Shown here: positions 9,508-30,170 of the stretch, piece by piece | Layout of the letters: each line of letters begins with the position of its first letter | Position numbering within the stretch: the stretch's first letter is position 1 | Source: Planctomycetota bacterium | GTDB taxonomy: Bacteria; Planctomycetota; UBA1135; UBA2386 | DNA: 64,000 bases | NCBI GenBank assembly: GCA_046290465.1 | Contig: JBKAGP010000001.1 | Location: 1,600,001-1,664,000 of the forward strand | Reading direction: 5' to 3' | Translations under genes and position numbers: made by a program | The notes under the pieces: generated by a model | Seen by the model: the letters and a program-made list of their open reading frames with translations, nothing else | Databases searched by the model: none | Told to the model about the DNA's origin: nothing

Positions 9508-10052
9508 TCCATCCCAGCGAGCAGCCGACATCCGGACTGCGTGGCAGCTACCGCGACATCCTCCGTGCCCCAGACGGACGCCCCATCTACGAAAGACCGT
9601 GGCGCCCCAACGCGATCGTGGCGGACTGTCGCCGCGTGCTGTCCGCCTTCGTCAACGGCACCGGCCCGGCTGCCCAAGGCATCCAAGGCCTGTGGATCGG
9701 GGCTGGCCTCGATGCCTGGGACAGCGTGCCCCCACCTCCGCCCACGGGCACCGAGACCGTGCTCGTCGACCCGAACCCGTTCCTAGTTCCGGTGGCCGCG
9801 ATGACCCTCGAGTTCCTGTCGCCGACCAACACGGTGTCGGCAACGCCAACGAACCGTCTGCAGATCTCGATCCCGATCGGACCGGGCCAGCCACCCTGGC
9901 CCGACGGCAACCACGCGACCGGCAATCTACGCGAGTTCGGCCTCGCAGCGCAGCTCGGCGGCAACCTCGTGCTCCTCAACTACGTCATCCACCCCGTCAT
10001 CGCCAAGGACCCCGCGAGCACGCTCGATCGGACGATCTGGCTGGAGTTCTGA
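9504..10052 (+). CDS. Putative tail-collar/fibre-associated protein
   Basis: GNLREFGL...HPVIAKD pattern resembling tail-collar proteins; ATGA overlap. Confidence 0.55.
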   Translation: MIHPSEQPTSGLRGSYRDILRAPDGRPIYERPWRPNAIVADCRRVLSAFVNGTGPAAQGIQGLWIGAGLDAWDSVPPPPPTGTETVLVDPNPFLVPVAAMTLEFLSPTNTVSATPTNRLQISIPIGPGQPPWPDGNHATGNLREFGLAAQLGGNLVLLNYVIHPVIAKDPASTLDRTIWLEF

Positions 10053-10072
10053 ACCACCTCGCCCCCTTCGTC

Positions 10073-12037: not shown

Positions 12038-12072
12038 CGGGACGCGCTTCCCTTACCCAGCGAGACCATCTC

Positions 12073-14745
12073 ATGCCGAACCCAATGATTGCCCCGGTTG
12101 CCGACGGCCACGCCGTCGGGGATTCGAACACCGTATTCATCGACCTGATGCTGGTGGATGTCGACGACGAAGCATCGTTCACGATCGACTGTCCGACGAC
12201 GGCCTCGGTCTCGATCGAACGCGCGCCGACCAGCTGGGCGAGCACCGGCACGTCGCTGTTGTCCGCCGGAACGTGGAGCGGCTCGGCGGTGACGTTCGAA
12301 GGTTGGCAGGCGAGCATCAGCGTCGCCGGCACCGAGGCCACGATCACGGTCAGCCAGGTCACGACTTCGCCCACCTCGGACATGGTCCGCGTGCGGGTCT
12401 CGGAACTCGACGCCGCCGCGTGCACGGCAACGGAGGGCGGCAACGCGACGATCGAACGGGTGCTGGCCGACCCCAGTCTCACCGGCCTGGGTTCGAGCGG
12501 CCCCCCGCGCGAGAAGTCGACCGTCACGCTGCTCGGCACCGTCGACTACACCCAGTTCACGACGGGTAGCGCCTCGCTCTCCGCGCTGCCCCCCATCGGC
12601 GCGAACTGGTTGCGGGATCCATCGGATCCGCTGGCTTTCTCGCTGGGAGCGACCACGTTTGCCGGAGTCGGCGGCGCGCCGGCCCAGGCCGACTTTGTAG
12701 TCCCCGGGCTCTACGCGGACGTCGACACGGCCTTCGAACTGCGCGGCTACTGTGACCTCGACGCCTCGGGGACGTACGATCTCGGGGAACCGGAGAACAG
12801 CGAGCCATTCTCGCTCGAAGTCAGCCCGACCGACTTCCACATCCTACTCGTCATCGACCGATCCGGGAGCATGTCGGGCAGCCTCCCCGGGGTCACCCCC
12901 GGCGGCTCGACCAAATGGGAAGAGGCGAAGGCTGCCGCGCACCTGTGGACGGACTTCATGTTGGCGTTCCGAAGCGGCGACGGTCACCGCATGGGGATCG
13001 TGACGTTCGAACACGGAACCTGTGGCTGGGGCACCCAGTCCGCTTCGGGTGAAGTCGATCTGCGGATCCCGCCTCCGGGCGCCCTCGCCCCGCTATCCAC
13101 CTTCGACCTCGATGCGCTGGACCTCGGCGAGCCGGCATCGTGCACGCCGATCGGGGAATCGCTGGTCTTCGCAATGGACAAGCTGCTGGCCGAGTCGCCG
13201 AATCAGGACGAACGCCGCGTCATCGTTCTGCTGACCGACGGCTACCAAAACTCCGGGACGGTCACCATCAAGTCCACTCCACCGGCAAGCGGCGTCACCA
13301 CCTGGGCCAGCGAGCGCACCCAGGGTGCCCGGCAGATCATCAGCAACAACCTCGATCTCTACACCATCGCGGTCGGCCAGGAGACCGAAGAGGACCTACT
13401 CAATGACCTGCCCAACGACCCGGTCGGAGGTGCGGGCTTCTACCACCTGACCAACGACTCCTCCGACCTCCTCGAGACGTATGCGGCCATGCTCGGCAAC
13501 TCTCTGGATGCCGAGTCTCTGAGCCCGACCAACACGCCGGCCGAAACCGATCCGGGCTCGGCCACCGAGACCGCAGATGCGAAATACGTGCAGGTCAACC
13601 AGGGCGAGACGCGGCTGGCCGTCGCCATGGTTCGCAGCGATTCATCGTTCAAGGCACGGCTCGCCTATCGTGACCAGGGCAGCTCGGGGCCGTTCACGCC
13701 GATCGGATCGGGTCCGGACGTGGTGATCCACGAGCGACTCCGACACACGATGGCCATCATCAACCTGTCGGGCCTGTTCGCCGACCCAGCCGAGCCGGCC
13801 AAGGAATGGCGCCTGCAGCTACGCACCGATAGCGGCACGTCGCAGATCCTGGACGGCAAGGTCGTCGCGATGGTCGACCTGCACGTCAAGGCCCAGGTCT
13901 CGTTCGATCGCTCCTCGTACCGAACCGGCGAGCCGATCCAGCTGCAGTGCTCGCTGTCCGCAGGAGCGCGACCGCTCCCCGACGCGGAGGTCACGGTCGA
14001 GGTAGCCGCCCCGGGAGAAGGCCTGGGCACGTTCCTGGCCACCAACTCCGGGCGATACAAACCCGTGGACCAGGACGGGGATGTCAAGCCGCCCAAGCAG
14101 CTGATGTTCTCCACGCTGCTCAAGAGCCTGCAGCTGCCGGGACTGGCGGTGGTCAACCCGGTGTTCGCCGACGGCACCAACCGCCTGCACGACGACGGCG
14201 CGCACGGCGACGGCGCGGCCGACGACGGCGTGTATGCCAACAGCATCGCCGCGACCGACAAGGAGGGCACCTACCGGTTCCGCATCCGCGTCCGCGGTGA
14301 GGTCTCACCGAACAATCGTTTCGATCGACTCTTCGTGCGATCGACCTGGGTCGGAGTGCGAACCGACGTCGCAGCATCTCCTGTGACGATGGTCACGCTG
14401 CCGGCACCCGGACCCGGGCTCGTTGCCATCCAGGTCTTGGTGACACCGAAGAGCGCGACCGGCGAACTGGTCGGACCGTTCCGCGCCGACGAAGTCACCT
14501 TCCAGAGCAGCGCCGGCAGCTGGCAGGGACAGGTCGAGAGCCGCCTCGACGGCTCCTACTCCTACGTTTTGCACTACCCGGAAGGTCAACAACCGGTCGT
14601 GCAAGTCACGGTAGGCGACCAGCCACTCGGCCCACTCGTCGTCGGCGGCGAGGACAGCGGCGATCTGTGTGACCGCCACGGCTGCATCGGGCTCTTTTTC
14701 GTAGCAATACGCTGCCTCTTCCGCAAGCTCCTCAGAGGCAAGTAG
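12073..14745 (+). CDS. vWA-domain protein with choice-of-anchor-X-like motif
   Basis: MIDAS residues LVIDRSGSM / TPIG / LLTDG; LHDDGAHGDGAADDGVY; hydrophobic-basic C-terminus. Confidence 0.8.
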   Translation: MPNPMIAPVADGHAVGDSNTVFIDLMLVDVDDEASFTIDCPTTASVSIERAPTSWASTGTSLLSAGTWSGSAVTFEGWQASISVAGTEATITVSQVTTSPTSDMVRVRVSELDAAACTATEGGNATIERVLADPSLTGLGSSGPPREKSTVTLLGTVDYTQFTTGSASLSALPPIGANWLRDPSDPLAFSLGATTFAGVGGAPAQADFVVPGLYADVDTAFELRGYCDLDASGTYDLGEPENSEPFSLEVSPTDFHILLVIDRSGSMSGSLPGVTPGGSTKWEEAKAAAHLWTDFMLAFRSGDGHRMGIVTFEHGTCGWGTQSASGEVDLRIPPPGALAPLSTFDLDALDLGEPASCTPIGESLVFAMDKLLAESPNQDERRVIVLLTDGYQNSGTVTIKSTPPASGVTTWASERTQGARQIISNNLDLYTIAVGQETEEDLLNDLPNDPVGGAGFYHLTNDSSDLLETYAAMLGNSLDAESLSPTNTPAETDPGSATETADAKYVQVNQGETRLAVAMVRSDSSFKARLAYRDQGSSGPFTPIGSGPDVVIHERLRHTMAIINLSGLFADPAEPAKEWRLQLRTDSGTSQILDGKVVAMVDLHVKAQVSFDRSSYRTGEPIQLQCSLSAGARPLPDAEVTVEVAAPGEGLGTFLATNSGRYKPVDQDGDVKPPKQLMFSTLLKSLQLPGLAVVNPVFADGTNRLHDDGAHGDGAADDGVYANSIAATDKEGTYRFRIRVRGEVSPNNRFDRLFVRSTWVGVRTDVAASPVTMVTLPAPGPGLVAIQVLVTPKSATGELVGPFRADEVTFQSSAGSWQGQVESRLDGSYSYVLHYPEGQQPVVQVTVGDQPLGPLVVGGEDSGDLCDRHGCIGLFFVAIRCLFRKLLRGK

Positions 14746-14950
14746 AGAAACCCGTTCCGAGCCTCGGTTCCTTCGGTCAGTTCTTCACGCTCCTGCCGCT
14801 CCTTCCAGCGTTGCATCCCTATTGCTCCCATCTACGATGCAAGTAAGTGCGTCACGCATCGCGTGTAGGGAATCAGGAGTACCAGTGCGACCGCCGAAGC
14901 TTAGCGAAGGAGCGAGATCTCGGATCGGACACCGGGACTACCGTGTGTGG

Positions 14951-15931
14951 ATGGATCGTTTCATCACGAGCGATCCGGCCACCCTCGACCTGCTCGACGT
15001 CCTCGATCGCGTCGCCGATACCGACGCCTCCGTGTTGATCACCGGAGAGTCCGGCACCGGCAAGGAGTTGCTGGCCCGCGGCATCCACGAGGCCAGTTCG
15101 CGTTCCAAACACGCCTGGGTCGCGATGAACTGCGGCGCGGTTCCAGTGGGGCTGCACGAGTCGGAGCTGTTCGGACACGTGGCCGGCGCGTTCACCGGCG
15201 CTTCCCAGAGCAAGCCCGGCCGGTTCGCCACCGCGGACGGCGGCACGATCTTCCTCGACGAGGTCGGCGAGATGCCGAAGCCGATGCAGACCGGACTCCT
15301 GCGAGTGCTGCAGTCCGGCGAGTTCTCCCCCATCGGAGAGGCGAAGACGACGAACTGCGACGTCCGGGTCGTATCGGCGACGAACCGCGACCTGCCGGTG
15401 CTGGTATCCGACGGTAGATTCCGCCTCGACCTCTACCACCGACTCAACCTGATCGAGATCAAGGTCCCAGCGCTGCGCCATCGCCGCGCCGACATCCCCT
15501 TGCTTGCCAACCACTTCCTCGAAAAGTACGCGACCCGCTATCAGCGACGGGTCTCGATTGGCGAGAGCTTCTTCGATGCCCTGCTGGAGCGAACGCTTCC
15601 GGGAAATGCCCGCGAGCTGGAGAACATCGTCCGTCGCGCCGTGCTCGTGTGCCGCACGAGTTGCCTGGGGCGCAACGATCTCCCACCGGAGAAGCCCAGC
15701 CAGGCGGCGGAACCTGCCGACCCGCCCCCGACAGAGCGAACGTTCCACGAGGAGAAGGCAAAGGTCATCGCCGAGTTCGAACGCCAGTTCCTGACGTCCA
15801 TCCTGCGCAAGAACGCCGGCATCGTCAGGCATGCGGCAACGGCCTGTGGCCTCAGCGAGCGCAACTTCCACGCGAAGCTGGCGCAGTACAGGATCACGAG
15901 CAAGGACTTCCGCGGCGCCGGCACGCACTAA
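14951..15931 (+). CDS. Sigma54-dependent activator lacking an N-terminal sensory domain
   Basis: [38 protein letters not shown]-terminal HTH; start uncertain (14837 or 14951). Confidence 0.88.
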   Translation: MDRFITSDPATLDLLDVLDRVADTDASVLITGESGTGKELLARGIHEASSRSKHAWVAMNCGAVPVGLHESELFGHVAGAFTGASQSKPGRFATADGGTIFLDEVGEMPKPMQTGLLRVLQSGEFSPIGEAKTTNCDVRVVSATNRDLPVLVSDGRFRLDLYHRLNLIEIKVPALRHRRADIPLLANHFLEKYATRYQRRVSIGESFFDALLERTLPGNARELENIVRRAVLVCRTSCLGRNDLPPEKPSQAAEPADPPPTERTFHEEKAKVIAEFERQFLTSILRKNAGIVRHAATACGLSERNFHAKLAQYRITSKDFRGAGTH

Positions 15932-16437
15932 GCGCGCACGCTCGCTTCGATGGCAGCTGCCCGATTCGCACGGCGACCGCACCGATTGCAGGATCTCGGC
16001 GTGAGCGTACCACAAGGCAGCGTACTATCCGGTCTCTTGGCGATCTCTACGTGGCTTCGTTCGACCGAGCGATGCAGGACCGCTCCTTCGAGATCTACCA
16101 TCGAGTTCGTCGCCGGCATTCAACCGCTTGCCTCGTCGACTCCGTAGCGACGCGGGAGTAGCAGGCAGGCTGCGCCCGGACAAGCCACATCAGCGATGTC
16201 CGAAGAGCGTCAGGATCAGTGCGAATGGGACCATTCAGTCCGCACACGTGCTGGCCGCGTCACGAAACACCCAAACCGCGAGAAGCGGAGGAGAAGAAGC
16301 CCATGGGAGAGTGCTGTCGCGAGCATTGGCAACGGCCTTGGCACTTCCGCGTGACCGCCCATCAGGCGACCACCGTAGGTGACCCTGCGCGCGACCGATG
16401 GACCTGAACTCGCTCGCTGTCACAGACCGCCCTATGA

Positions 16438-16542
16438 GAGCCACTCCGGTTCGCCCAAGCGGAGCCACCGCCAGTTCGGCCAAACGGAGCCAGGCCAGTT
16501 CGGCAGAACGGAGCCACCCTGGTTCGGCCAAGCGGAGCCACC
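16438..16542 (+). repeat. IS21 left-end subterminal repeats (4 x 24-25 bp, GAGCCA...GTTCG...CG)
   Basis: Read directly; inverted copies at 17521-17544 and from about 17626 to the right end. Confidence 0.85.
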
Positions 16543-16635
16543 TGTGACGGGTTGAGCCGGAAGCGAGTCTGGAACTGGGTGAGCCCCCTGCCACCCGGGA
16601 TCTTCGAGGAATCACTTACCCCCTCGAGGAACCAG

Positions 16636-17149
16636 ATGGGCAGGAGGCTCAGCATGCATCGTCTACAAGATCTCGTCCGACTCCACCGCGAAGGCGTCCC
16701 CGGCCGCACGGCGGCCCGCCTTCTGAAGATGGGGCGCAACACGATCGCCCGCTACACGAAGGCGCTGTCGGCGGCCGGCCTGCTGAGCGGCGACCCGAGA
16801 GACCTACCAGCCATCGAGGAGCTTCGCGCCGCGGTCGACGAACACGCGCCGCCGAGCACGCCGCCGCAGCAGAAGTCATCGATCGAACGATGGCTGCCGA
16901 TCGTCGATGCAAAGTCCGACGAAGGCGTGCCGCCGACGGCGATCTTCGACTTCCTTCGGCTCGAGCACTCGGACTTCGCGGGCAGCCTGTCGGCGATCAA
17001 GCGCCGCTGCGCGGCCCTGCGCCGCGAACGCGGCGTGCAGCCAGGCGAGGTGACGATGCCCGTCGAGACGGCGGTCGGCGACGTCGCGCAAGTCGACTTC
17101 GGCTACGTCGGCAAGCTCTACGACCCCGAGTCGGGCAAGGAAAAGAAGG
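16636..17149 (+). pseudogene. istA: IstA transposase, N-terminal fragment
   Basis: MHRLQDLVRLHREG HTH; GDVAQVDFG (first catalytic Asp) followed by an abrupt break. Confidence 0.85.
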
Positions 17150-17521
17150 CACCGCGCGTGTCGCGCTGGCTACTCGGTGCTCTACGTCGCCGCGCACGAG
17201 ATGCTGACCAAGCTGCGCGCGTCGCGAGCCGACGGCAGCTACGACCGATGCCTCGCCAAGTTTGCGAGCCCCGACCTGCTGATCATCGACGATCTCGGGC
17301 TGCGACCGTTGGAGAACGACGAGCCCATCGACCTCTACGAGGTCATCCGGCAACGCTACGAGCGCGGCGCGATGATCGTCACGAGCAACCGTGCGCTCGA
17401 GGAATGGCCGCCGCTCTTCGTCGATGAGCTGCTCGCCAGCGCGGCGATGGACCGCGTGCAGCACCATGCCCACGTCGTCGTCATCGATGGGCGGTCTTTC
17501 CGCCAGCCGCGGAGCGCGTAG
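17150..17521 (+). pseudogene. istB: IstB ATPase, C-terminal fragment
   Basis: HRACRAGYSVLY, DLLIIDDLG, IVTSN, AAMDRVQHHA..GRSFR; Walker A missing. Confidence 0.85.
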
Positions 17522-17676
17522 TGGCTCCGTTTGGCCGAACTGGGCGTGATTCCTGCCGAACGCGATCAGGCTTCTGTGCCAATCCCGAAACGTCGCCTGT
17601 GCCAGTCCGAATCCGGCTTCGAGAGGTGGCTCCGAATGGCCGAACTGGGGTGGCTCCGATCAGGCGGTCCTTGACA

Positions 17677-18150
17677 CCGGTCTTCTCCGCGGCGATCAGC
17701 TGCGAGCCGCTGCCGCTGAAGGGCTCGTAGACGATGTCGCCCGGCGACGTGTGCTTGCGAATCGGGCGCTCGAACAGCTCCGTGGGCTTCGCGGTTGGGT
17801 GCTCGGCCCCGGTGCTGCGTGCCTTGCCGTCGAAGTCGACCTCCAAAACGGAGTCGTGGTCGTGAACACCGTCGTGCTCCGGCTGGTCGCCCTTGCGCCA
17901 TCCCATCACGCAGGGCTCATGGCGGAAATGCCAGTAGACGAGACCGAACACCGACGCCGGCTTCACCCAGATGATCTGCTGGTGGTCGAGGATGCCGAGC
18001 TCACGCCAGATGCGCTGAAGGTCGCCGCTGCGCTTGTGTGCGTGCCAGCAGTAGATGGCGGCCTTCGGGCCGAGCACGTCGAGCACGTTGGCGAACACCG
18101 CATGGAAGAACGCCTCCGGGTCCTTGATCGACACCCCGTCGTAGCGGTCC
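17677..18150 (-). pseudogene. N6/N4 DNA methyltransferase fragment cut by IS21
   Basis: QIIWVK, HPTAKP, VYEPFSGSGSQLIAAEKTG then IS end; no DPPY-containing N-terminus; left boundary approximate. Confidence 0.8.
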
Positions 18151-18360
18151 CATCGTAGCAGAAGCTGCCGCACGCAGAACAGTGGGCCCAACGTTTGCCA
18201 ACCCGCTGTGAACGAGAGCCCACGTCTCTAAACTCGGCGCAAGCCGTAGCTCCACCTGTTGACAGTGCTCCGAACGACCGAGATCGCAAGCTGGGCCGCG
18301 TACGCGTCAGCTCTCACCGCAGGCACGATTTTGTGCAAACCGCCCCCCGAGGCTGAAACC

Positions 18361-18876
18361 ATGGAGATGATGATCAAGGTCATCGGGCTCGTTGCTGGCA
18401 TCGCAACGGCCGGAGGCACCATCGCGGCCGCCTACTTCGTCCTCTTTCTTGGTAGGCGACAACGCGAAGACACGTGGCAACGTCACCTGTCCGAGATTCA
18501 CCAGCTCTTCTGGGATAAGGACCCCGACAACGCCAAAGTACGAATGTGGATCGCGGCGCCGACGCTCGGCTCACCACTCGGGGCCGAGCTCTACAACGCT
18601 CTTCACGTGAGGAGGCACACGCCGAAGAAGATCAGCGCCGAGGACTACGCTCGAATCGACAAGCTGGATCGGTTCTTGAATGCGTTCGTCAGGGTATTCG
18701 TTTTCATCGAGGAGACTCCTGGGCTCAAGCTGACGTCAGCCCACCTGATGCTGGAGTACTGGGCGGGACGCCTGATGGGGCTCGACGAAGAGGGCAAGTG
18801 CGTCCAAGAAGATCTCAACTGGTACATGCGCGAGTACTTCCCCTCGATCGCAAGAGGGCACAAGTTGCTGACCTAG
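18361..18876 (+). CDS. Hypothetical protein, one N-terminal TM segment plus helical domain
   Basis: Hydrophobic VIGLVAGIATAGGTIAAAYFVLFLG; start uncertain. Confidence 0.6.
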   Translation: MEMMIKVIGLVAGIATAGGTIAAAYFVLFLGRRQREDTWQRHLSEIHQLFWDKDPDNAKVRMWIAAPTLGSPLGAELYNALHVRRHTPKKISAEDYARIDKLDRFLNAFVRVFVFIEETPGLKLTSAHLMLEYWAGRLMGLDEEGKCVQEDLNWYMREYFPSIARGHKLLT

Positions 18877-18967
18877 CCAACGCCCCCTGCGTGCGGCTGT
18901 CGCATTCGTGGCCAAATGCGACGCGGATCAACTTGATGATCTCGCCAGAACGAGCGTGCATGTGGTC

Positions 18968-19264
18968 ATGCACCTCCAAGACGCCCTCGGGCAGTTCCAA
19001 GTCCAACTCCGCGCCGATGGGCGCTCGGAGCACACCCGCAAGCAGTACCAGCGCCACGTCAGGGCGCTGATCGCCTGGCTCGCCACAACAGCCCACAGCT
19101 CGGAGATCGAGGCTCTTGTCCCGGCCGTCATCGCCGAGTTCCTCGCCAGCGACGCGGCAACCGGCAGCGCGCGCGGAGGAGCCAAAAAGGCGTCGAGCGC
19201 CAACGCGATGCGCACGAGCATCCGCTGCCTCAGCCGCTGGGCGACCGCGACTGGCCGGTTTTGA
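18968..19264 (+). pseudogene. Tyrosine integrase N-terminal (SAM-like) fragment
   Basis: FQVQLRADGRSEHTRKQYQRHVRALIAWL..SANAMRTSIRCLSRW; stops before the catalytic domain. Confidence 0.7.
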
Positions 19265-19300
19265 ACCGTTCCCCGAGGAAGTTGTTGGCGAACCAACGAC

Positions 19301-19368
19301 TGGTAGCGGGGATGGGTGGTGATTTGAGTCGGGTGGTAAGGTGGGATCATTTGCGCTGGACAGCCTGA
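19301..19368 (+). repeat. Distal att site plus alternative recombinase tail 1
   Basis: Core identical to tRNA 3' end; continues in recombinase frame as VAGMGGDLSRVVRWDHLRWTA*. Confidence 0.8.
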
Positions 19369-19396
19369 GCTGTGAGACCGGCGCCACCGCACAGCA

Positions 19397-19927
19397 TCAA
19401 GTTGGTGGACGAACGGAATCAGAGACCGCACGTACCGTCATGTACCACCCGTTTAGCAGAAGCCCTCGCACCCAATGGACTAGAGCCATTCGCTTGCGAG
19501 CCTTCACTGCATGAGCAGCCACCTCAGGATCGCTATCCTGCGTTGCAACCGACTTCTGAGGGCACGCTTGGGTGTCACCAGCATCCGCTGGACCTTCGGT
19601 TTCACGGGCTCCCTCGGAACGCGAGGTAGATTCAACACCTTCACTGGCCGAGTCGGATTCACTCGACTCTGCCTGCTCATCGAGCGCTTCGTCCACAGCC
19701 TCGTGAACATCCGTCTCTAACTGCTCGTCAGGCGATAACGATTCTTCGGCATCAGCCCGCGTATGGACATGCTTCTGGACGATGTAGATGTGCGAAGCAT
19801 CGTCGAACGAATCTGCAACTTGCTCCAGAAGGCGACTGTTGTCACCAGGATCTCTAGACGTCAGAACCAGAGTGATTCGACGATTTTTCCTCGTTCGGCG
19901 ACGAGGCCTTTGCGGCTGCTCACTCAT
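19397..19927 (-). CDS. Hypothetical protein
   Basis: 176-aa ORF coupled to upstream gene by ATGA overlap. Confidence 0.5.
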   Translation of the reverse strand: MSEQPQRPRRRTRKNRRITLVLTSRDPGDNSRLLEQVADSFDDASHIYIVQKHVHTRADAEESLSPDEQLETDVHEAVDEALDEQAESSESDSASEGVESTSRSEGARETEGPADAGDTQACPQKSVATQDSDPEVAAHAVKARKRMALVHWVRGLLLNGWYMTVRAVSDSVRPPT

Positions 19928-20715
19928 CGTTTGACTCCCCGGGGAGAGCCCGCCTGGCTTTCTGAGTCGATTCGCCTCACACGAAGACCACTTCCTCCTG
20001 CAGCACGATGATAGGCGTCTGCGCGCCTTGTCATCTCAACGATAGCCTGACGCACTTCGTCGTCGGACAAGCCGTCCGGGACCTGCATCTCAAGCACTAG
20101 CTCATCGCCAAACTCCTCCGACTCCTCTAGGACAAGATCTAGCTCAGACTCCGGCCAGCCCTCCGGTCGAACCAACGGCCACAGATCGCCTAGGGCTTTC
20201 ACGGGTGCAGTGTCCACACCCCAACCACACGCACCATGAATCTGTCGGGCTGCGGCGATGTCGGCTTGCATCGTCTGGCGAATCGCCGCAGCAGCATCAC
20301 GCGAAGCGGCCCATGCGAAAGCAGCCTCCTCGGCGGCCACACCAACCGCCCTGAGCTGTGCCTCGATCTCGGACCGATTCCTGCCATAGCTGTCCCCGGC
20401 GCACAACTTGATAGCGCGGGCAGCTGCTTCAGCGGCCCTTCCGATAGAGGCGTCACGAATAACGCCAGTCCAATGGCCTGCATCAACCGGGGCGCGGAGC
20501 TTCTTGCGCAGTTGATAAGCACGGCTAATCGCCTGCTCAGCGGCCTCTGGGCCCGGATCGGCGCAGTAGCGCAAGCAAGACTCAAGCACGCCCGATGCAA
20601 GACTACGTACGCCTTGCGAATCAGCGAGTGACAACAGACGCATCACGCATCTCGTCGCAACGGCGACGACGCCCATTGCGGGAACCGACCCTAGGTCTTT
20701 GTACATGAACCCCAT
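19924..20715 (-). CDS. Hypothetical Ala-rich helical protein
   Basis: 263-aa ORF, LGDLWP..PEGWP segment; no family recognised. Confidence 0.55.
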   Translation of the reverse strand: MGFMYKDLGSVPAMGVVAVATRCVMRLLSLADSQGVRSLASGVLESCLRYCADPGPEAAEQAISRAYQLRKKLRAPVDAGHWTGVIRDASIGRAAEAAARAIKLCAGDSYGRNRSEIEAQLRAVGVAAEEAAFAWAASRDAAAAIRQTMQADIAAARQIHGACGWGVDTAPVKALGDLWPLVRPEGWPESELDLVLEESEEFGDELVLEMQVPDGLSDDEVRQAIVEMTRRADAYHRAAGGSGLRVRRIDSESQAGSPRGVKR

Positions 20716-20899
20716 CCTTGCTGTTGGCAGCGAGCCCGAAAAGCGGGCAGTCCGGTCATCCTAGCCCAAGAGCGCGAGCTTCACAGGCAGCCCAACCTGT
20801 ACGCGACGATCTCCTGCATGAGAGTCGCGGACCCAACAGTCGGTCCTTGGGAGGCGCCCGGTCCACGTACCTCGACAGCTTTGGCGGACCCAGCTTCGC

Positions 20900-20961
20900 T
20901 AGCGGGGATGGATGGCGACTTGAGTCGGGCTCGCTATCGGCGGATAGCATGGACGCCATAA
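20900..20961 (+). repeat. Second att-like copy plus alternative recombinase tail 2
   Basis: 20900-20929 matches 19304-19333 at 27/30; reads AGMDGDLSRARYRRIAWTP*. Confidence 0.75.
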
Positions 20962-21155
20962 CCCATCTCCTGCAAGAGTCTTCCACACACGCGAGACGAT
21001 CCAGCCCAGTTGCGACACAGGACGAAGCGCGGCGAGCCGCCATTCTGGCAGCATATCGGGGACCCGACTGCCAACGCGACACGCTCGGACAGCATCCGCC
21101 GCAGAGCAAGGAGCGGCACACCCGTTGCTTGGACGGCGCCGAAGGAACGGCAGCA

Positions 21156-22175
21156 ATGGAGACAGCAAACGACTACATCGCGGAGATCCTCCGCCAGATC
21201 GAACCCGATTCTGAAGTCCTCGCCGAGGCTCGGACGCGACGGGATCTCGTCGCAGCGAAGGCAATGTCACTTCGCGGGACCCTGCGACAGTACTCCTCCG
21301 GAAGCGTCGCCCACGGAAATGTAACAGCACCCATCAATGATGCAGATGGCGGCATCGTGCTAGACCGGCGCATTCACACCAAACTGGGACCGGAGGGCGA
21401 CAATGAAGGCCCAGAGAAGGTCATCGAGGAGCTGAAGGAACTCGTAGGACCCAAGATTCGGGCCAAGTACTCCAAAGCTCGCATTTCGACATCTCGACGA
21501 GGCCTCCTGGTCACATTTGGCAGCCCCCTTAGCGACCAAGACCCTTCGGTCGATATGATTGTCACGCTCACCCGCAAGAAGGGCGATGGTCTTTGGATTC
21601 CCAATCTAAAATCCAACACGTGGGACGCCTCCCATCCGGAGCAACACACAGATCTATTTACGTCCGGAACCACGACACTTCGCCAACAACGCTCGACGAT
21701 CACCCGACTCGCCAAGGTCTGGAATAAGCAGTTCACCAACCCAGCGCTCTCGTCGTTCAATGTTTCATCCCTGGCCTGGGAACTGATCACAAAGACAAAC
21801 TCCGACACAGCCGAGGCGCTCCAGGAGTTTTTTGCACTGTCCGCCCAGGCAATTGGCCAAAACAACACCAAGGATCCTGCGGGCGTATCCAGTTCCATCC
21901 GCCTGCTGCAAAGCCGGTCCATTGCGGTCAGAAGACTCCAATCAGCTGCACGTTCCCTTGAGAAGGCAATTTCCTCCAAGGATCCCAACGGAATACAAGA
22001 GTCGATGGCAGCCGTCTTCCACCATTACGTTGACCCGCCGGCTTCGAGCAAGGCTGCATGGGCGGCGGCCTTCAGAAACAAAGATAGCTCCGTTGGCGTT
22101 ACGGCTTCAGGCCTCGCAATTGGTACAGGCGAAACGCTGAAGTCCACCAGGTCTTTCGGAGGACCTGCAGAGTGA
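21156..22175 (+). CDS. cGAS/DncV-like nucleotidyltransferase (CD-NTase/SMODS)
   Basis: SGSVAHG..PINDADG (GS + DxD), third Asp in PSVDMIV, LWIP..W..SHP, RLAKVWN, SSF, DPAG; C-terminal tail ..RSFGGPAE. Confidence 0.82.
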   Translation: METANDYIAEILRQIEPDSEVLAEARTRRDLVAAKAMSLRGTLRQYSSGSVAHGNVTAPINDADGGIVLDRRIHTKLGPEGDNEGPEKVIEELKELVGPKIRAKYSKARISTSRRGLLVTFGSPLSDQDPSVDMIVTLTRKKGDGLWIPNLKSNTWDASHPEQHTDLFTSGTTTLRQQRSTITRLAKVWNKQFTNPALSSFNVSSLAWELITKTNSDTAEALQEFFALSAQAIGQNNTKDPAGVSSSIRLLQSRSIAVRRLQSAARSLEKAISSKDPNGIQESMAAVFHHYVDPPASSKAAWAAAFRNKDSSVGVTASGLAIGTGETLKSTRSFGGPAE

Positions 22176-22615
22176 AGTTTCGCCGGGTCTCGGGACCATG
22201 GTATGGACGCGACAGAGAGCGCATCTCTTTCGAAAGAGGCACTCGCAATTATGATCACATCAGCGCAAGGACCATTGCAAAGGTAGGCAGAGAATACAAG
22301 GTCACAATCTCTGTACCGCACTACCAATCACGCGGCGTCACGATCATGTTCCGCAAGAACTCCCCCGAGACGCCACGCGTGTTCGTTGACGGCAAGAAGG
22401 AAGAATCCCCTCACCGCTACGAGGACGCCACGCTATGCATGTGGCACCCAAAAGATCCTCCCGAGAAGCGCTGGACGCGCTCGGACGGCCTCCTCCACCT
22501 CCTCGGACACATTGAGGCCCACCTATTCAAAGAAGAATGGTGGCGCGAGTCGGGCGAATGGCTCGGCGCGGAAGCACACCACAACGGCGCCGAACGGAAG
22601 GAGATGCACAGTTGA
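22172..22615 (+). CDS. Stand-alone prokaryotic E2 (short type II CBASS-type)
   Basis: PRVFV..SPHRYEDATLCMWHP..W..HLFKEEWWRESGEWLGAEAHH; GTGA overlap with the cyclase. Confidence 0.8.
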   Translation: MKFRRVSGPWYGRDRERISFERGTRNYDHISARTIAKVGREYKVTISVPHYQSRGVTIMFRKNSPETPRVFVDGKKEESPHRYEDATLCMWHPKDPPEKRWTRSDGLLHLLGHIEAHLFKEEWWRESGEWLGAEAHHNGAERKEMHS

Positions 22616-23115
22616 CAGACATCCTAGAGTCAAGCATAACTCCGGCGATAATAGCCGGATCCGTTTCACTGATCGTGGCAATCGCAGCCAACCGGAAGTC
22701 ACTACAAGATCGCCAGCGCGCCCTAGTTGCTGAAGCATTCTCGGCGATTACCGAATACCGTGAATACCCCTATATTGTCTATCGGCGCGACAAGCTCAAG
22801 AAGGAAGAAGAACGCACTCGCATTTCGAGCGCTCTAAGCACTCTCCAATCCCGCATCAATAGCCTGCAAGCGCAACTATTCGTCGAGACGCCCTTCATAG
22901 CAGATTCCTACAAGAGCTTAGTCGCCGCCACGCGCAAGATCGCTGGCCCCGCCATCAAAATGGCGTGGGATTCCGAGCCTGCTGGATGTGACGCCGAAGT
23001 GAGCACATCAGCCTACGACACCACACAACTAGAGAAGCCGGCACAGCGGTTCCTAAAACAAGCGCGTCGAAACTTCGGGTGGGTTCCAAACTGGGTCTAC
23101 TTCTTGTGTGATTGA
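22612..23115 (+). CDS. Putative effector: single N-terminal TM plus helical domain
   Basis: TTG start overlapping E2 stop, AAGGAG at 22598-22603; TM ITPAIIAGSVSLIVAIAA; EYREYPYIVYRR segment. Confidence 0.65.
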   Translation: MTDILESSITPAIIAGSVSLIVAIAANRKSLQDRQRALVAEAFSAITEYREYPYIVYRRDKLKKEEERTRISSALSTLQSRINSLQAQLFVETPFIADSYKSLVAATRKIAGPAIKMAWDSEPAGCDAEVSTSAYDTTQLEKPAQRFLKQARRNFGWVPNWVYFLCD

Positions 23116-23135
23116 TCCTCGAACGTGCGGGGAGC

Positions 23136-23224
23136 ACCCCGCAGCTCCGTCGCCGTCAGCGTCGGTCACACCCGAAGGGAGCGGAGCGGATTGACCGATG
23201 CTGACGGCGATGGAGCTGTGGGGT
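23136..23224 (+). other. 33-bp-stem hairpin (candidate single-strand origin or structured RNA)
   Basis: Arms 23136-23168 and 23192-23224; the three deviations are all G-T; loop contains GAGCGGAGCG. Confidence 0.7.
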
Positions 23225-23292
23225 CCCCCGTAGCTCTTGAGCCGGAGGCCGAGGGAGCTTGACAGCTCGCCTACCACCACGATCCTCGACGC

Positions 23293-24054
23293 GTGCAGGA
23301 CGAATCGCGCGTAGCCGCCTGGGGCCGGGGTCGAGACGAGGAGCTTGTCCAACTGGCACTCGCTGTCTTCAGCAGCGCCGACGAGACGATCGCCATCTTC
23401 GGCGGGGAACCGGCCCCATCGACGCCACCTGACGGGTCGCACCTCTCGTTCTACCGCGACCACCGGCGCCTCATGCGCCTCATGAGTCAGATGGCAGAAC
23501 CTCCGCACAAGCCGCAGGACAAGACGGACGCCGTCCGCTTCCTGATCGAGATCTGGATGCGCTGCGTCTACGCCTACCTGATCACCCCCGGAATGCTCCT
23601 CCGTGCCGCGCGCCAGGGCGAACCAAAGGCGCTGGATGATCTGCTTCGCCTCGACAAGGCGGCCATCTGCGAGCCACGAGTTGCCAAGCAACTCGTCGCC
23701 ATCTTCGACCGCGGGCGACCAGCTCTCAAGAAGCGCATCGCCGCAGCTCTGAAGGGCAGACCGACGCTCCCGCCACGCAGGACGCTGAAAGCTCGGATGG
23801 CAGGCCTGGTCATCGCGATCATCAACGAGGACGAGAGGTTCGTTTCTCGCGGTGTCGAGGCACCGACGCCGAGCGAGTTGCGCGACCTCTTCGACGCCAT
23901 CGCCCAGGACGCGGACCAGCAGCAGCCATGCGATAGCGACCTCCCTGAAGGTGACGACGCGTGGCGAAAGGCAGTTCAGCGAGCTCGCTCCGAACTGCGC
24001 CCGTTCGTGCGCCTCGCGATCGACCACCCGCTCCGGACAAGAGTCGCACCGTAG
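23293..24054 (+). CDS. Hypothetical protein of the element backbone
   Basis: 253-aa ORF with high-GC codon usage, co-oriented with rep and recombinase. Confidence 0.6.
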   Translation: MQDESRVAAWGRGRDEELVQLALAVFSSADETIAIFGGEPAPSTPPDGSHLSFYRDHRRLMRLMSQMAEPPHKPQDKTDAVRFLIEIWMRCVYAYLITPGMLLRAARQGEPKALDDLLRLDKAAICEPRVAKQLVAIFDRGRPALKKRIAAALKGRPTLPPRRTLKARMAGLVIAIINEDERFVSRGVEAPTPSELRDLFDAIAQDADQQQPCDSDLPEGDDAWRKAVQRARSELRPFVRLAIDHPLRTRVAP

Positions 24055-24352
24055 TTGTCCGGACGCATGTGGCGGCCATGGGGAACGTCGCCCCCATGAC
24101 GCACAACATGCGAAGGCGGCAGCGCGCAGGCGCCGCAACCCGTCCGGGCGACTCAGCCCGGGCGGTTGCGGCTCCTACCGCTGCCGGTTCCACGACCTGG
24201 GCCATCCTGGCCACGACCCTCGACGGGCCAACGGTCTGCATCCACAGCATCCGCCGGATCCTGACGTCGATGCTCTCCCGCCGCCTCGGGCGCCTGGCGA
24301 GCCTGCGACCGTTCGCACGCCCGCGACGCGGCGCACCGACCGCTGCAGCCAC

Positions 24353-24376
24353 ACCCCCCTCTGCTAACAGGGGGGT
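24353..24376 (+). promoter_or_regulatory. Putative oriT/dso nick-site hairpin ACCCCCCTCTGCTAACAGGGGGGT
   Basis: 8-bp stem with GCTAAC in the loop, 6 bp before the rep ATG; resembles MOBT/Rep_trans nick sites. Confidence 0.75.
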
Positions 24377-24382
24377 TGAAAC

Positions 24383-25437
24383 ATGATCGCCACAGAACGG
24401 GGCGACGGCGGATTCGAGGATCTCGGGCTCACCCAGATCCGCATCTCGCTCGACGCGCTCACGGTTTCGCTCACCGAGTCCGAGGTCAGCGAGATGTTCG
24501 GCAAGATGATCGAGGCCGTCAGACGAACGGGATGCAACACCCTGCCAACGATGGGGCGGCCCTGGCGCGACTTCCGCAAGACGCAGCGCTACGGGCTCTC
24601 GACGCTCAACGAAGGCGCGCAGTGGTACCGCAAGTACGATCCGCAGCAGCTCGCGCCCACCCTCGGCAGCGACTACGAGTCCTGGGAGGTCATGGGCCCC
24701 GCAGCGCGCATCCTCGCCGACGTGCTGAAGTCGGCGCCCGTGCATGTCGGGCGCGCTTCACGCCTCGACGTCGCATTCGACTTCGCGTGCGAACCTGACC
24801 TGTGGCCCGCCGCAATCGAGGACGCGATCTCCTTCCACTGCGAGCACCACGGCTTCCACATCCACTACCAGGGCGAACGGGAGAAGCGCACCGTCTACGT
24901 CGGCTCGCCCAAGTCGGAGCGGCGCGTTCGCATCTACCGGCACGACCTCGCGCACGGTGGCGGCCTCCCGATCCTGCGCGTGGAGGTAGAACTCCGGCGC
25001 AAACACGCGGCCGAAGCCTGGAGACGTTGGTGGCCGGGCGGCGGACCAGCCATCGGCCTCTGCGCGGGTCACATCGAGCAGATGACCGGACGCGCCGTCT
25101 TCGTGGACGAACTCACCTACCCCGCGCCCGCCCCTGGCCGCGACGTCGATCTGATCGAGACCTCGGCACACGGCACCACCCAGTACGGAGGCGCCTTCGA
25201 GGCCCTTCTCCGCGCGGGCGTCGATCTGACCGCCCTCGTCCGCGACGTGCGCGAGCTGCAGCTCTCGGCGAGCGGAAAGCGGGTCCGTGAGCACAAGATG
25301 CGGCGCCTGCTCGCATCCGTTCGCGGCCTCACGCCCGAGCAGATCGCCTCAGCGATCCTGGGCTCGATCCGCGCGCGCATCCGCCAGCGCTTGCCATCCA
25401 ATCCGACCGGACCTAGCGTCCGGCCCGGAGACCCTGC

Positions 25438-25441
<4 letters not shown>
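24383..25441 (+). CDS. Rep_trans / MOBT-family rolling-circle initiator or relaxase
   Basis: SRLDVAFD, TVYVGSPKS..RIY, RVEVELR motifs. Confidence 0.8.
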
Positions 25442-27216
<1,775 letters not shown>

Positions 27217-27269
27217 ATGGGTGAGCGAAGAACGATAGCGACCAGCCCCGAAGAAGCAAGGCTTCGAAG

Positions 27270-30170
27270 TCAGTTCTGCGAACGCAATTGCTCAAACTCG
27301 ACGCGCTGCTTGGCCGGGCAGTCGACCGCCGCGAACAGCGCCGCATGCTTCTCCGCCTCCGCCAGGACCGCCGGGCGCGTCGTCGGGTCGCGCAGGCTGC
27401 AGCGCATCCAGTCCAGCAGGCGCGCGCGGAAGTGCGGGTCCTCGGTCGAGGTCGCGCGCATCGTGCGTTCGAACACGGCGGCGGCGCGCTTGGGTTCGTT
27501 GGCGACCAGCGTCGCCGCGATGCGGGACGACAGGTCGAGGGCGTCGGGTTCGGCCGCCGCCTCCGAAGAACGCGCCTCCAGCAGGCCCAGCGCCTCCTTC
27601 GGCTTGTTCAGCGCCAGCTGCGCCTCGGCGGCGAGCAGGCGCAGGCGGTCCCGGTAGACCACGTCGGCGGGCGCCGGTTCGTTGAGCCATGCGGTGGCGC
27701 GGCGCACGACCTCCTGGTTCTTGCCGGCGGCGAGGTCGACGGCGAGGCGAAGCATCCGGTGCTGCGGGCCGTCGAGGCGCTGCGCGATGTCGACCGTGTC
27801 GAGCGCGCCGAAGGCGGTGCGAACGTGACGCGCCTCCTCCTTGTGCTCCTCGGCCTTCCAGTCGGTGCGCATCGGCAGCAGCGACGCGGCGCCGATCACG
27901 CAGCGCATCGCGCGGCGGGCGCGCTCGGCGGTCGCGGCGTCGGTGCTGGAGACGTCCTTGGCCAGTTCGTGGGCGCGGTGCGTCTGCAGCACCAGGCGCA
28001 GACCCTTGCGCTTGCCGTTGTGCAGCAGCGGCTCGCAGGCGGCCAGCCACTCGCCGCTGCCGGCGCGCTGGTCGGCGGCGATCGTCGCCAGCGCCCGCAG
28101 CAGCGGGTCGATGCGGAACTCGTGCTCCTTCTTGATCGGGTCGCCGAGCTGGCCGAGCACGAACTTGATCGCGCCGATCGCGCGCTCGGGCATGCCCTGC
28201 TCGCGGCCGAGCTCGGTCATGCAGTCCACTACCGCGTCGAGCGTGCCGGCGTCCTGCTCGAGCAGCAGGCGGGAGCGCAGCCGGGTGATCGTCTCCGGCA
28301 GCCACGTGTGGCGGCGGGTGTCGTTGGAGTCGCGCAGGCGGACCAGCGACTTCGCCGCCTGCTTGCGCAGGCCGGCCTCGGTGTCGTCGAGCGACTCCTG
28401 CAGCGCGTTCAGCCAGTCGTCCGCGAGCTCCCCGTCCGAACGCCACGCGTCCAGGTAGATCAGGCAGGTCGAACGGAACTTGGTGTCGAGCTTGTCGTCG
28501 GCCGCCAGCTTGCGCAGCACGGAGAACGCCTCGGGCACGTACTGCTTGCGGCCGTCGAGCGTCTGCGCCAGCAGCAGGCCGCGGCCGCGCAGGTCGCGGT
28601 CGGGCGCGCTGCGGCAGCTCTGGTCGATCAGCGCGACCCAGTCGCTCTTGTCGGCGGCGTCGGGACCCGGCGCCAGCCAGCGCGGCTCAGTGCGCGACGC
28701 CAGCGTGTCGAGGATCACCTGCAGCTGCAGCTGGTTGGCGGTCGCGTCGGCGAACAGCGCGCGCGCCCGTTCGACCAGCGCCTGGCGGGCCTGGTCCGAC
28801 GGGAACCGCCGCAGGCCGCGCAGCGCCGCCACCTGGCCCTCGCGCGACTGGCCGGCGAGCTGCGCGAGCAGCAGCTGGCGGATCTCGCCGGCGAGCTCGG
28901 CCTCCTCGGGCCGGATCAGGTAGGCCGCGACCTCGAGCAGCAGCGCGCGGCGGCGCTGCACGTCGGGCTGCTGCGACTCGGGCACCAGCTTGAGGCGGTC
29001 GAGCAGCGCGCGGAAGAACGCGTGGCGCGGCGTCGCCGCCCCCTCCACCACCGGCGAACGGGCCAGCGACTCCTGCAGCGCCTCGAGGCAGGCGTCGAGC
29101 ACCGCGGGGCCGTCCGAGGTCGTGCGTTCCTGGACCGCCGCCCAGTCGATGCCGGCGCGCCGGCCGACGTGCACGCTGACGAACTCGCGCGCCGCGTCGA
29201 CACGCATGCTCTCCATCTTGTCGATCAGCTGCTGGTAGGCGCGCGGGCCGAGCCGGGCCGAGCGCTGCGCCAGGTCGACGTAGCTGCGGGTGCCGAACTC
29301 GGCCTGCCAGGTGTCGAACTCGGCCTTGGTGCGGATCGTCGCATCGGGGTAGACCAGCAGGTCGAGCGCCTTCTGCGCGGCGGCGCGCACGACCGCTTCG
29401 GGCGCCTCGAGCTGGCCGGCGATGGTCGGCGCCAGCAGCGTGTTCTGCATGTCGGCGAGGCAGCGCAGCACGTGCGAACGGTCGACCGGCTCGAGCGCGT
29501 GCATCAGCGTCGAGGCCGCCGAGCCGAGTTCGCGCACCGGCACGCGCTGCAGCGCACGCCGCGCGGCCGCCCGGACCGGCGCGGCCTCGTCGTCGTCGAC
29601 GACCGGCGCGTTGGCCCACAGCGGCGCGCAGGCACCGAGGTAGCCGGTCAGCAGTTCGCGGCGCAGGTCCTTGTCGGCGCCGCCGAACTGCGTCGTGACG
29701 CTGCCGAGCAGGTGGCCCTGCAGGGCCGTCAGGATGCTGATGCGCACCCTGTCGGGATCGTCGGCGAGGCGCAGCCGGTCGTGCAGCAGCCGGTGGGCCT
29801 CGGCGCGCGGCATCGCCAGCAGCTGGGCGATCGCGCTCTCGCGCTCGGTCCGGCCGTCGGGGCCGGAGCGGTCGAGCATCGCGCGCAGCTTCTCGAGTTC
29901 GGTATCCCGGGCCTTGCCGTCCTGCTGGTCGGCGGCGGTGTCCGAAGAGGCTTCGGATGCGGCGGCGTCGGACGGGGTCGCGGTAGACGTCGTGGCGGTG
30001 GGCGTCGTGGCGGTAGACGTCGTGGCGGTTGACGTCGTGGCGGCGGCGGACGCGACACCATCCGAACGGGCCGGCTCCGAGGCGGCAACCGGTCGCAGCA
30101 GGCCGGCAAGGATCACGCACCAAAGGCACGCGTCCACCAGTCTCCGGATGCCCAAGCTGCTGCCCTTCAT
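27270..30170 (-). CDS. Exported HEAT/TPR-like repeat protein
   Basis: Signal-peptide-like N-terminus, helical repeats, Thr-rich linker. Confidence 0.7.
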   Translation of the reverse strand: MKGSSLGIRRLVDACLWCVILAGLLRPVAASEPARSDGVASAAATTSTATTSTATTPTATTSTATPSDAAASEASSDTAADQQDGKARDTELEKLRAMLDRSGPDGRTERESAIAQLLAMPRAEAHRLLHDRLRLADDPDRVRISILTALQGHLLGSVTTQFGGADKDLRRELLTGYLGACAPLWANAPVVDDDEAAPVRAAARRALQRVPVRELGSAASTLMHALEPVDRSHVLRCLADMQNTLLAPTIAGQLEAPEAVVRAAAQKALDLLVYPDATIRTKAEFDTWQAEFGTRSYVDLAQRSARLGPRAYQQLIDKMESMRVDAAREFVSVHVGRRAGIDWAAVQERTTSDGPAVLDACLEALQESLARSPVVEGAATPRHAFFRALLDRLKLVPESQQPDVQRRRALLLEVAAYLIRPEEAELAGEIRQLLLAQLAGQSREGQVAALRGLRRFPSDQARQALVERARALFADATANQLQLQVILDTLASRTEPRWLAPGPDAADKSDWVALIDQSCRSAPDRDLRGRGLLLAQTLDGRKQYVPEAFSVLRKLAADDKLDTKFRSTCLIYLDAWRSDGELADDWLNALQESLDDTEAGLRKQAAKSLVRLRDSNDTRRHTWLPETITRLRSRLLLEQDAGTLDAVVDCMTELGREQGMPERAIGAIKFVLGQLGDPIKKEHEFRIDPLLRALATIAADQRAGSGEWLAACEPLLHNGKRKGLRLVLQTHRAHELAKDVSSTDAATAERARRAMRCVIGAASLLPMRTDWKAEEHKEEARHVRTAFGALDTVDIAQRLDGPQHRMLRLAVDLAAGKNQEVVRRATAWLNEPAPADVVYRDRLRLLAAEAQLALNKPKEALGLLEARSSEAAAEPDALDLSSRIAATLVANEPKRAAAVFERTMRATSTEDPHFRARLLDWMRCSLRDPTTRPAVLAEAEKHAALFAAVDCPAKQRVEFEQLRSQN
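29980..30039. repeat. 4 x 15-bp tandem repeat (Thr-rich linker)
   Basis: GCGGTAGACGTCGTG variants. Confidence 0.85.

Follow-up and report, generated by a model that had tools for sequence, protein, structure and literature searches.

The genes and sites at the tRNA-fMet 3′ end

The window, meaning the whole stretch of DNA analysed here, comprises 64,000 nucleotides from a Planctomycetota bacterium (contig JBKAGP010000001.1, positions 1,600,001 to 1,664,000 of the forward strand), and all coordinates refer to it unless another locus is named. At the tRNA-fMet gene we observe two left-hand junctions, each continued by a short coding tail, followed by a set of mobile-element genes that ends in a large serine integrase, itself running into the tRNA on the opposite strand:

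19283..19300, plus strand: neighbour of tRNA-fMet before insertion, forming the left arm of the outer junction; matches the flanks of relatives
19301..19312, plus strand: outer att core, 12 bp, a copy of the tRNA 3′ end including CCA; predicted crossover dinucleotide GA at 19311-19312
19312..19368, plus strand: attP arm of the outer junction with its 18-codon tail cassette, MGGDLSRVVRWDHLRWTA and a stop (19366-19368); DNA motif at 19322-19330
19397..19927, minus strand: outer-module ORF, 176 aa, family not found
19924..20715, minus strand: outer-module ORF, 263 aa, hypothetical; Atlas neighbours are unnamed Planctomycetota proteins (score 0.90)
20881..20899, plus strand: left arm of the inner junction; a 12-bp block agrees with the outer left arm at 10 of 12 positions, at equal distance from the core
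20900..20908, plus strand: inner att core, 9 bp, matching the tRNA 3′ end without CCA
20908..20961, plus strand: attP arm of the inner junction with its 17-codon tail cassette, MDGDLSRARYRRIAWTP and a stop (20959-20961); DNA motif at 20918-20926
21156..22175, plus strand: CD-NTase (CBASS cyclase), 339 aa; SMODS over cut-off, PADLOC cyclase E 7e-115
22172..22615, plus strand: CBASS E2, stand-alone; PADLOC E2, E 7e-42
22612..23115, plus strand: CBASS 1TM effector, putative start codon; PADLOC 1TM effector, E 8e-22
23131..23229, no strand: long inverted repeat with 38-bp arms, conserved in L045
23293..24054, plus strand: 253-aa core gene of the element family, known domain absent; tblastn matches in relatives
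24096..24386, plus strand: small conserved ORF before rep; similar ORFs in 5 of 10 listed loci, chosen by eye
24383..25441, plus strand: Rep_trans-like replication initiator or relaxase; PF02486 E 9e-6, 25.9 bits, below the 29.6 cut-off
25438..27183, plus strand: large serine integrase, 581 aa; PF00239, PF07508, PF13408; last 10 codons are tRNA antisense
27079..27135, minus strand (that of the tRNA): hairpin and U tract in the integrase coding end, z -6.5
27132..27151, plus strand: right junction, with the integrase-side arm motif (27132-27140), which mirrors both left copies, and the core (27140-27151)
27140..27216, minus strand: tRNA-fMet (CAT), the only initiator-type gene among the three tRNA-Met genes of the genome

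The element between the inner site and the tRNA, about 6.2 kb long, holds the CBASS genes, the inverted repeat, the 253-aa gene, the small ORF, the Rep_trans-like gene and the integrase. A CD-NTase, a single E2 and an effector in one operon make up E2-CBASS (type II short) as defined in the accessible parts of PMC12948482 and PMC11153139, and the element carries these defence genes into a fixed tRNA site. The near-perfect inverted repeat (z -11.7) is conserved upstream of the 253-aa gene in L045 (1636-1739), a metagenome locus with an integrase 83% identical, a shared flank, and different cargo and Rep; it may represent a replication origin or a regulatory or RNA hairpin. The 253-aa gene has tblastn matches upstream of the integrase in L045, L037, L038, L043 and L050, and only unnamed clusters as its Atlas neighbours. 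The small ORF, for which a Pfam match is absent, is a candidate directionality factor. The Rep_trans-like gene reaches phrog_453 in PHROGs at E 0.001; it is without a match among the fetched loci, whereas the Rep of L045 matches about 20 family loci, which suggests that the replication gene has been swapped while the genes flanking it were kept. With regard to the definition of an integrative mobilizable element, the unit has its own recombinase and a Rep_trans match below the cut-off, and the scanned ORFs include no conjugation families. The hairpin at the integrase end recurs at z <= -3.6 in 12 of 16 homologous loci (against mononucleotide shuffles) and is probably a terminator that the element brings for the tRNA. 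A promoter scan returned 0 sites and Rfam the tRNA alone. For the two minus-strand ORFs between the sites, no family was found in Pfam, PADLOC, PHROGs or the Atlas, the 176-aa ORF having nothing over the cut-off in the first three; the resemblance of the 263-aa product to Imm5 (Atlas score 0.85) is only a lead.

Where does the island begin? The 30 nt at 19283-19312 are 93% identical to the tRNA flank in five same-genus loci (L004, L006, L009, L010 and L014), and the 18-base flank is also present in L045. Since the 18 bases left of the outer core are thus a tRNA flank in those five loci, the outer site is taken as the true edge of the serine-integrase island; the flank itself is possibly the end of an older, different element. 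The idea that it preserves the ancestral empty site was rejected, as L002 and L003 have tRNA-Gln beside tRNA-Met and another flank; in the window genome tRNA-Gln and tRNA-fMet lie 62.5 kb apart. A further cassette with the outer flank as its right end was likewise rejected, as the corresponding left junction is absent within about 19-20 kb in L129 and L130.

Farther left, an N-terminal tyrosine integrase fragment (18908-19264) is cut just left of the outer flank and has a 77% identical paralog at genome positions 3,972,940-3,973,267. Compared with two near-identical genomic copies, an IS21-like element (16415-17676) has lost about 1.4 kb internally; it abuts a DNA methylase fragment (17481-18191). 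Large repeat-bearing ORFs (5434-14745; 1357, 902 and 890 aa), presumably with a vWA-like motif, occupy a long variable region between tRNA-Gln and tRNA-fMet.

Att sites and their dyad axis

The original prediction, made from the letters of the window alone, described 20900-20929 as a repeat of 19304-19333 at 27 of 30 positions, and both this match and the peptides and stops read from the two copies proved correct. Neither 30-mer has a further match at up to 8 mismatches in the 6,594,045-base genome, and a degenerate version of it matches twice in the window as against 0 times in 100 shuffles. The copies are not dispersed repeats, being att junctions tied to an integrase and a tRNA in a genome without other copies. 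As had been proposed, the inner copy comprises 9 bp of the tRNA 3′ end and ends at the discriminator base; the outer copy has 12 bp in common with it, CCA included. Excision is predicted to yield 7839 bp from the outer site, 6243 bp from the inner site (the circle size originally calculated) and 1596 bp for the module alone. None of the joints of these three circles is among the 15 joints listed, out of 17, from assembled contigs of four runs, one of them possibly the source of this DNA, which is evidence in neither direction, as contigs drop rare variants.

The position of strand exchange can be approached through the symmetry of the arms. A 9-bp motif lies at positions 10-18 outward from the GA at 27150-27151 and is mirrored at 10-18 in both left copies, which score 10 and 9 of 20 at this axis. 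Over 11 real or reconstructed attP junctions the dyad scores sum to 110 at the GA/GG axis and to 29-65 at 16 other offsets; seven of the 11 junctions score 9-15 of 20 at the GA axis, and four natural attP-type junctions in which integrase and arm occur together (L103, L114, L032 and L039) score 5-8 of 20. The motif covaries between the arms in L037, L043, L040/L110 and L103. Short sites with dyad arms about a central dinucleotide, where the cut is predicted, are what a large serine integrase is expected to use, and we infer that GA (27150-27151) is the crossover dinucleotide. At 10-18 the motif sits nearer the centre than in phage large serine integrases. The tRNA arm offers a T-loop motif at 5-13, as compared with 10-18 in the attP arms, with 6 of 9 positions alike; the left attB arm lacks the motif. 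According to the available part of PMC11722253, the attB motif is closer to the centre than the attP motif by 5 bp, to which the offset of the tRNA-arm motif in the window may correspond.

A crossover at AG (27144-27145), prompted by 22 diverging homologs whose junctions lie there, six bases left of GA, was dropped after the dyad scan and the finding of other mobile DNA at that position in G718 and G472, although AG is a possible cut position. In these two complete genomes other mobile DNA separates the AG junctions from an intact tRNA, so these junctions were assigned to other elements. Several family members (L108, G472 C1 near 6,848,950, and P0270-P0272) have a foreign sequence in common after the integrase end, which suggests that a second element family inserts at AG of this tRNA end.

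On sequence grounds, then, the 30 bp are mostly a DNA site, consisting of the core and of the 9-bp motif mirrored in the integrase 3′ end. The original prediction had taken the synonymous nature of two of the three differences as a sign of selection on the peptide. Two of the three are indeed synonymous, and selection on the peptide holds up, but not by this inference: because the stretch is mostly core and binding motif, its two synonymous changes say little, and three differences are without statistical weight.

Between the inner and outer left arms 12 of 20 positions agree; of 661,844 genomic AG sites, 0.11% do as well, and the 10/12 block within the inner arm was chosen post hoc. More extended homology of the inner left arm to the flanks of relatives is not significant, and the arm holds no integrase remnant, the window having a single integrase match within 14001-29000.

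The integrase family and its stored tails

The integrase has the catalytic, recombinase and zinc-ribbon domains and the coiled coil of a large serine integrase, together with the invariant S11 and four Cys, and the top Foldseek matches of a homolog model are phage large serine integrases (SPbeta SprA, phiC31, LI and Bxb1). As the crossover is predicted to fall inside its coding sequence, recombination would give the protein two alternative C-termini. Of 138 close homologs examined, 17 were left out because their alignment ended before the junction; among the remaining 121, 71 end in a tRNA-antisense tail, 28 continue from the core residues into another tail, and 22 diverge earlier. The class of 28 is loose and includes short, possibly cut ends, and P0123 was moved into it by hand from the tRNA-antisense class. 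Endings antisense to tRNA-Met occur in distant relatives too (viral contigs and Paracoccus records). Two Paracoccus regions have no left junction within 20 kb. The element is uncommon: at E 1e-60 it occurs in 3 of the 401 genomes searched from the phylum, and at 1e-25 in 10 of 339 from the order (own genome counted), and the closest named integrase carriers are mostly Planctomycetota. Starting from P0061, a region search yielded 3 proteins without adding any tail, and phage records contained generic serine integrases only. Database entries of this family mostly represent the integrated, tRNA-tailed form, so those who mine them for genome-editing tools may be assaying the wrong protein.

Comparison of the sequences beyond the 30 bp indicates that the parked tail is a selected peptide, and it is these codons that carry the argument. 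The outer tail of the window and the inner tail of L045 are identical at 50 of 63 nt up to the stop and at 12 of 60 beyond it. Past the DNA motif the pair has pS 0.75 and pN 0.18 (Fisher p=0.004, with a single DNA pair and 10 differences behind the test); for the 18 codons as a whole dN/dS is 0.33 (p=0.06), as against 3.1 and 9.0 in the other two frames. The coding constraint that the original prediction proposed to seek by dN/dS is therefore observed as a synonymous excess in this frame only, in one pair. Within the window, the outer and inner tails are identical at 13 of 33 nt with the peptide pattern kept, a similarity that, with free gaps, only 1 of 60,000 random genomic read-throughs equals. 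Natural proteins carry such tails as well: P0274, an integrase C-terminal fragment, has one of this type fused at its end, and P0139 has a related tail in frame. L045 (14-138) has two att sites 66 bp apart, and its outer tail reads in frame via the inner site into the conserved tail, for 41 aa in total.

These observations bear on the reading that the repeats are DNA sites only and the peptides accidental. Its appeal is that the first 30 bp are core and binding motif and that tails vary widely in sequence and length across the family; since the homology extends 36 nt beyond the motif and ends at the stop, with the synonymous excess confined to this frame, and since P0274 and P0139 carry related in-frame tails, this reading is largely refuted and hardly credible.

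What might the tail do? Two AlphaFold models show the related tails as a helix or strand, with low confidence (pLDDT under 50 or about 55), so a stable fold is not supported. Tails ending in AA make up 6 of 28 attP-type and 0 of 22 other junction tails (p=0.024), as compared with about 2% of host reading frames, and AA ends also occur in two DNA-level cases, L032 and L042. The eight AA-tail integrases share 22-63% identity and are scattered on the tree, with at least 4 changes forced and two long branches. A C-terminal AA is a ClpX signal; the host tmRNA tag ends in LAA, and ClpX is present. By analogy, the AA-ending tails of relatives are possibly a degradation tag. The tails of the window end in TA and TP, not AA, so the degron is a lead at the level of the family that the window itself does not support. 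That the tail alters integrase activity, as in the phage Mx8, would be as likely by analogy. A degenerate 28-mer of the tail pattern has no copy in 90 other family genomes, a degenerate pattern found nothing in viral contigs, and looser patterns matched at control level in 5 family genomes.

Probable accretion, predicted excision and known parallels

We consider the island to be probably a composite, formed by repeated insertion at the tRNA-fMet 3′ end, with the 1.6-kb module as an integrase-less remnant that has kept its junction. The active unit would be the 6.2-kb integrative element, with its serine integrase, Rep, two conserved small genes and CBASS cargo. Its attP would lie within the last codons of its own integrase gene, such that insertion cuts the gene there; the integrated gene would then end in 10 residues from tRNA antisense, while its true tail would be set aside at the left junction. 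Upon excision, the tRNA-derived tail would be replaced by the tail stored at a junction; that tail would most likely belong to the integrase of the free circle and tune its activity or turnover. Each arriving element would leave a junction of the left type, and the outer module would be the CIME-like remnant of another family member, with junction and tail retained. Excision at the outer site, which would restore a tRNA with its CCA, is the likelier route, although the inner site may be usable. Both the order of arrival and a working excision reaction are matters that we infer.

Tandem accretion was one of the two options originally raised, and arrays in relatives (G716, G719 and G718) bear it out. 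In G716 a second integrase sits at the tRNA, and 13.3 kb ahead of it lies an integrase remnant bearing an attP-type junction; in G719 such a remnant with its junction lies 16.2 kb ahead of a distant recombinase, again at the tRNA; and in G718 and G472 other elements are stacked at the same tRNA site. The conserved tail type is outer in the window and inner in L045, with different cargo and Rep. Like a CIME, the outer module lacks integrase and transfer genes; cores lie at both of its ends, which form no dyad (2 of 20). Against accretion, an integrase remnant expected left of the inner core is absent, which calls for either a deletion or the end of an intervening element; the stacked sites of L045, 66 bp apart and in frame, are explained only awkwardly by decay; and the selection test, the AlphaFold models of the related tails, the TA/TP endings of the window tails and the low dyad scores of the four natural attP-type junctions all weigh on the same side.

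The absence of that remnant would be accounted for if a second element had entered a secondary site of the first and recombination between the integrase genes had then deleted the middle, leaving two left junctions and a chimeric integrase. The inner left arm does resemble a real target arm, and 22 of the 121 homologs have other sequence directly after the first core bases. In G718 and G472, however, the tRNA to the right of such junctions is intact and unrelated mobile genes intervene, so that the junctions look like stacked elements rather than secondary sites, and we hold this nested history to be very unlikely.

The other option originally raised was a nested element that leaves with or without the 1.6-kb module. 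In such a two-level system both left junctions would function, the integrase would gain a different tail each time, and the module would move as a cassette through junction-to-junction recombination. Each tail is intact and has its stop, and the mirrored motif is kept in both; the 10/12 block of the outer left arm recurs in the inner one; and the independent element L045 also has two stacked sites, separated by a 66-bp in-frame spacer, with the 10 bases that precede its inner GA exactly reverse-complementary to the 10 that follow its outer GA. A PDB entry, according to its accessible part, describes a phiC31 attL x attL synapse with an RDF fusion. Yet the L045 spacer holds no cargo, the ends of the window module form no dyad, the degenerate 28-mer is absent from the 90 other family genomes, and tails selected in former elements would explain the coding signal equally well. 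Moreover, excision at the inner site would strip the encoded CCA from the sole initiator tRNA. CCA ends 43 of the 58 tRNA calls in the genome (most of the others look spurious, and one tRNA-Leu looks real without it) and is encoded on this tRNA in 27 of 28 relatives' loci; PF01743 proteins are present, so CCA repair may be possible. This two-level system seems unlikely, although accretion and an element that leaves with or without the module are compatible, as an accreted remnant can retain a usable junction. Quite unlikely, in our estimate, is an extension of it, a serine integrase with a library of stored tails, in which the choice of junction at excision would decide the cargo as well as the C-terminal regulatory peptide of the circle form. 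If so, that peptide would either promote integration or act as a ClpXP tag, recombination itself would write directionality or copy control, and integrase-less modules would be exchanged as cassettes.

Integrases with att in their own gene, tail exchange, and tandem and CIME accretion are all known already; what is added here is evidence that the parked tail is selected. A close parallel is formed by the Dehalococcoides ssrA islands (PMC3146451, McMurdie 2011), for which the available part of the paper describes a serine integrase, DsiB, whose 3′ end overlaps its own att, tandem islands with direct repeats of the target's 3′ end between them, and 15 islands that lack an integration module; its authors suggest that the gene is perhaps complete only on the circle or beside an adjacent island. 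Insofar as that part of the paper goes, the two systems are alike in the att overlap, the tandem islands and the integrase-less islands. They differ in that the DsiB islands target tmRNA and carry a six-gene dsiAB module, whereas the window has tRNA-fMet, no DsiA, ParB or Mom, and a Rep_trans-like gene, and in that DsiB ends are divergent whereas the parked tail of the window is under purifying selection. The window element works like these islands without being a member.

Other systems share single traits, again as given in the accessible portions of the papers. The rumA-targeting serine integrases of streptococcal ICEs (PMC4701971, Ambroset 2016) have att in the gene and C-termini that differ between the integrated and excised forms; those elements are conjugative and target a protein gene rather than a tRNA, and stacked tails are not described there. 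In Mx8, attP lies inside int, and integration replaces the C-terminus and changes activity (PMC6070905, PMC4701971), but Mx8 Int is the tyrosine integrase of a phage, and 112 residues become 13 where the window exchanges 17-18 for 10. CIME accretion (PMC5704250, Guedon 2017) proceeds by insertion, decay to an integrase-less att-flanked unit and arrival of a newcomer at the target-proximal site, with composite excision patterns; the example uses tyrosine integrases and stores no peptide in an att arm, unlike the serine integrase and tail of the window. In phage BPs, att lies within a gene and an ssrA-like tag is present on the free form only, being lost on integration (PMC4557955, PMC3694055); the split gene is the repressor, and the parallel is to the AA-ending tails of relatives rather than to the window tails. 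The phage large serine integrases SPbeta SprA, phiC31, LI and Bxb1 have the same domain set and short core with dyad arms, but not the att within the gene or the tRNA target, and for the window the RDF is only a candidate. A literature search, chiefly of open-access papers, found no description of this tRNA-fMet serine-integrase family or of selected stacked tails, and the accessible parts of PMC11476347 and PMC10083194 contain nothing pertinent. The role of the swapped tail in serine integrases is left open in the available parts of PMC3146451 and PMC4701971; the locus and its relatives supply naturally paired forms, just 10 to 18 residues apart, with which a self-encoded switch could be tested simply.

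The tRNA end in G718 has further features of its own. On C1, at about 5,470,000-5,542,300 (L139, L151-L153), the sequence flanking a left junction copies the present flank of the tRNA, 72 kb distant, at 28 of 31 positions, and a second, convergent serine recombinase adjoins the tRNA.
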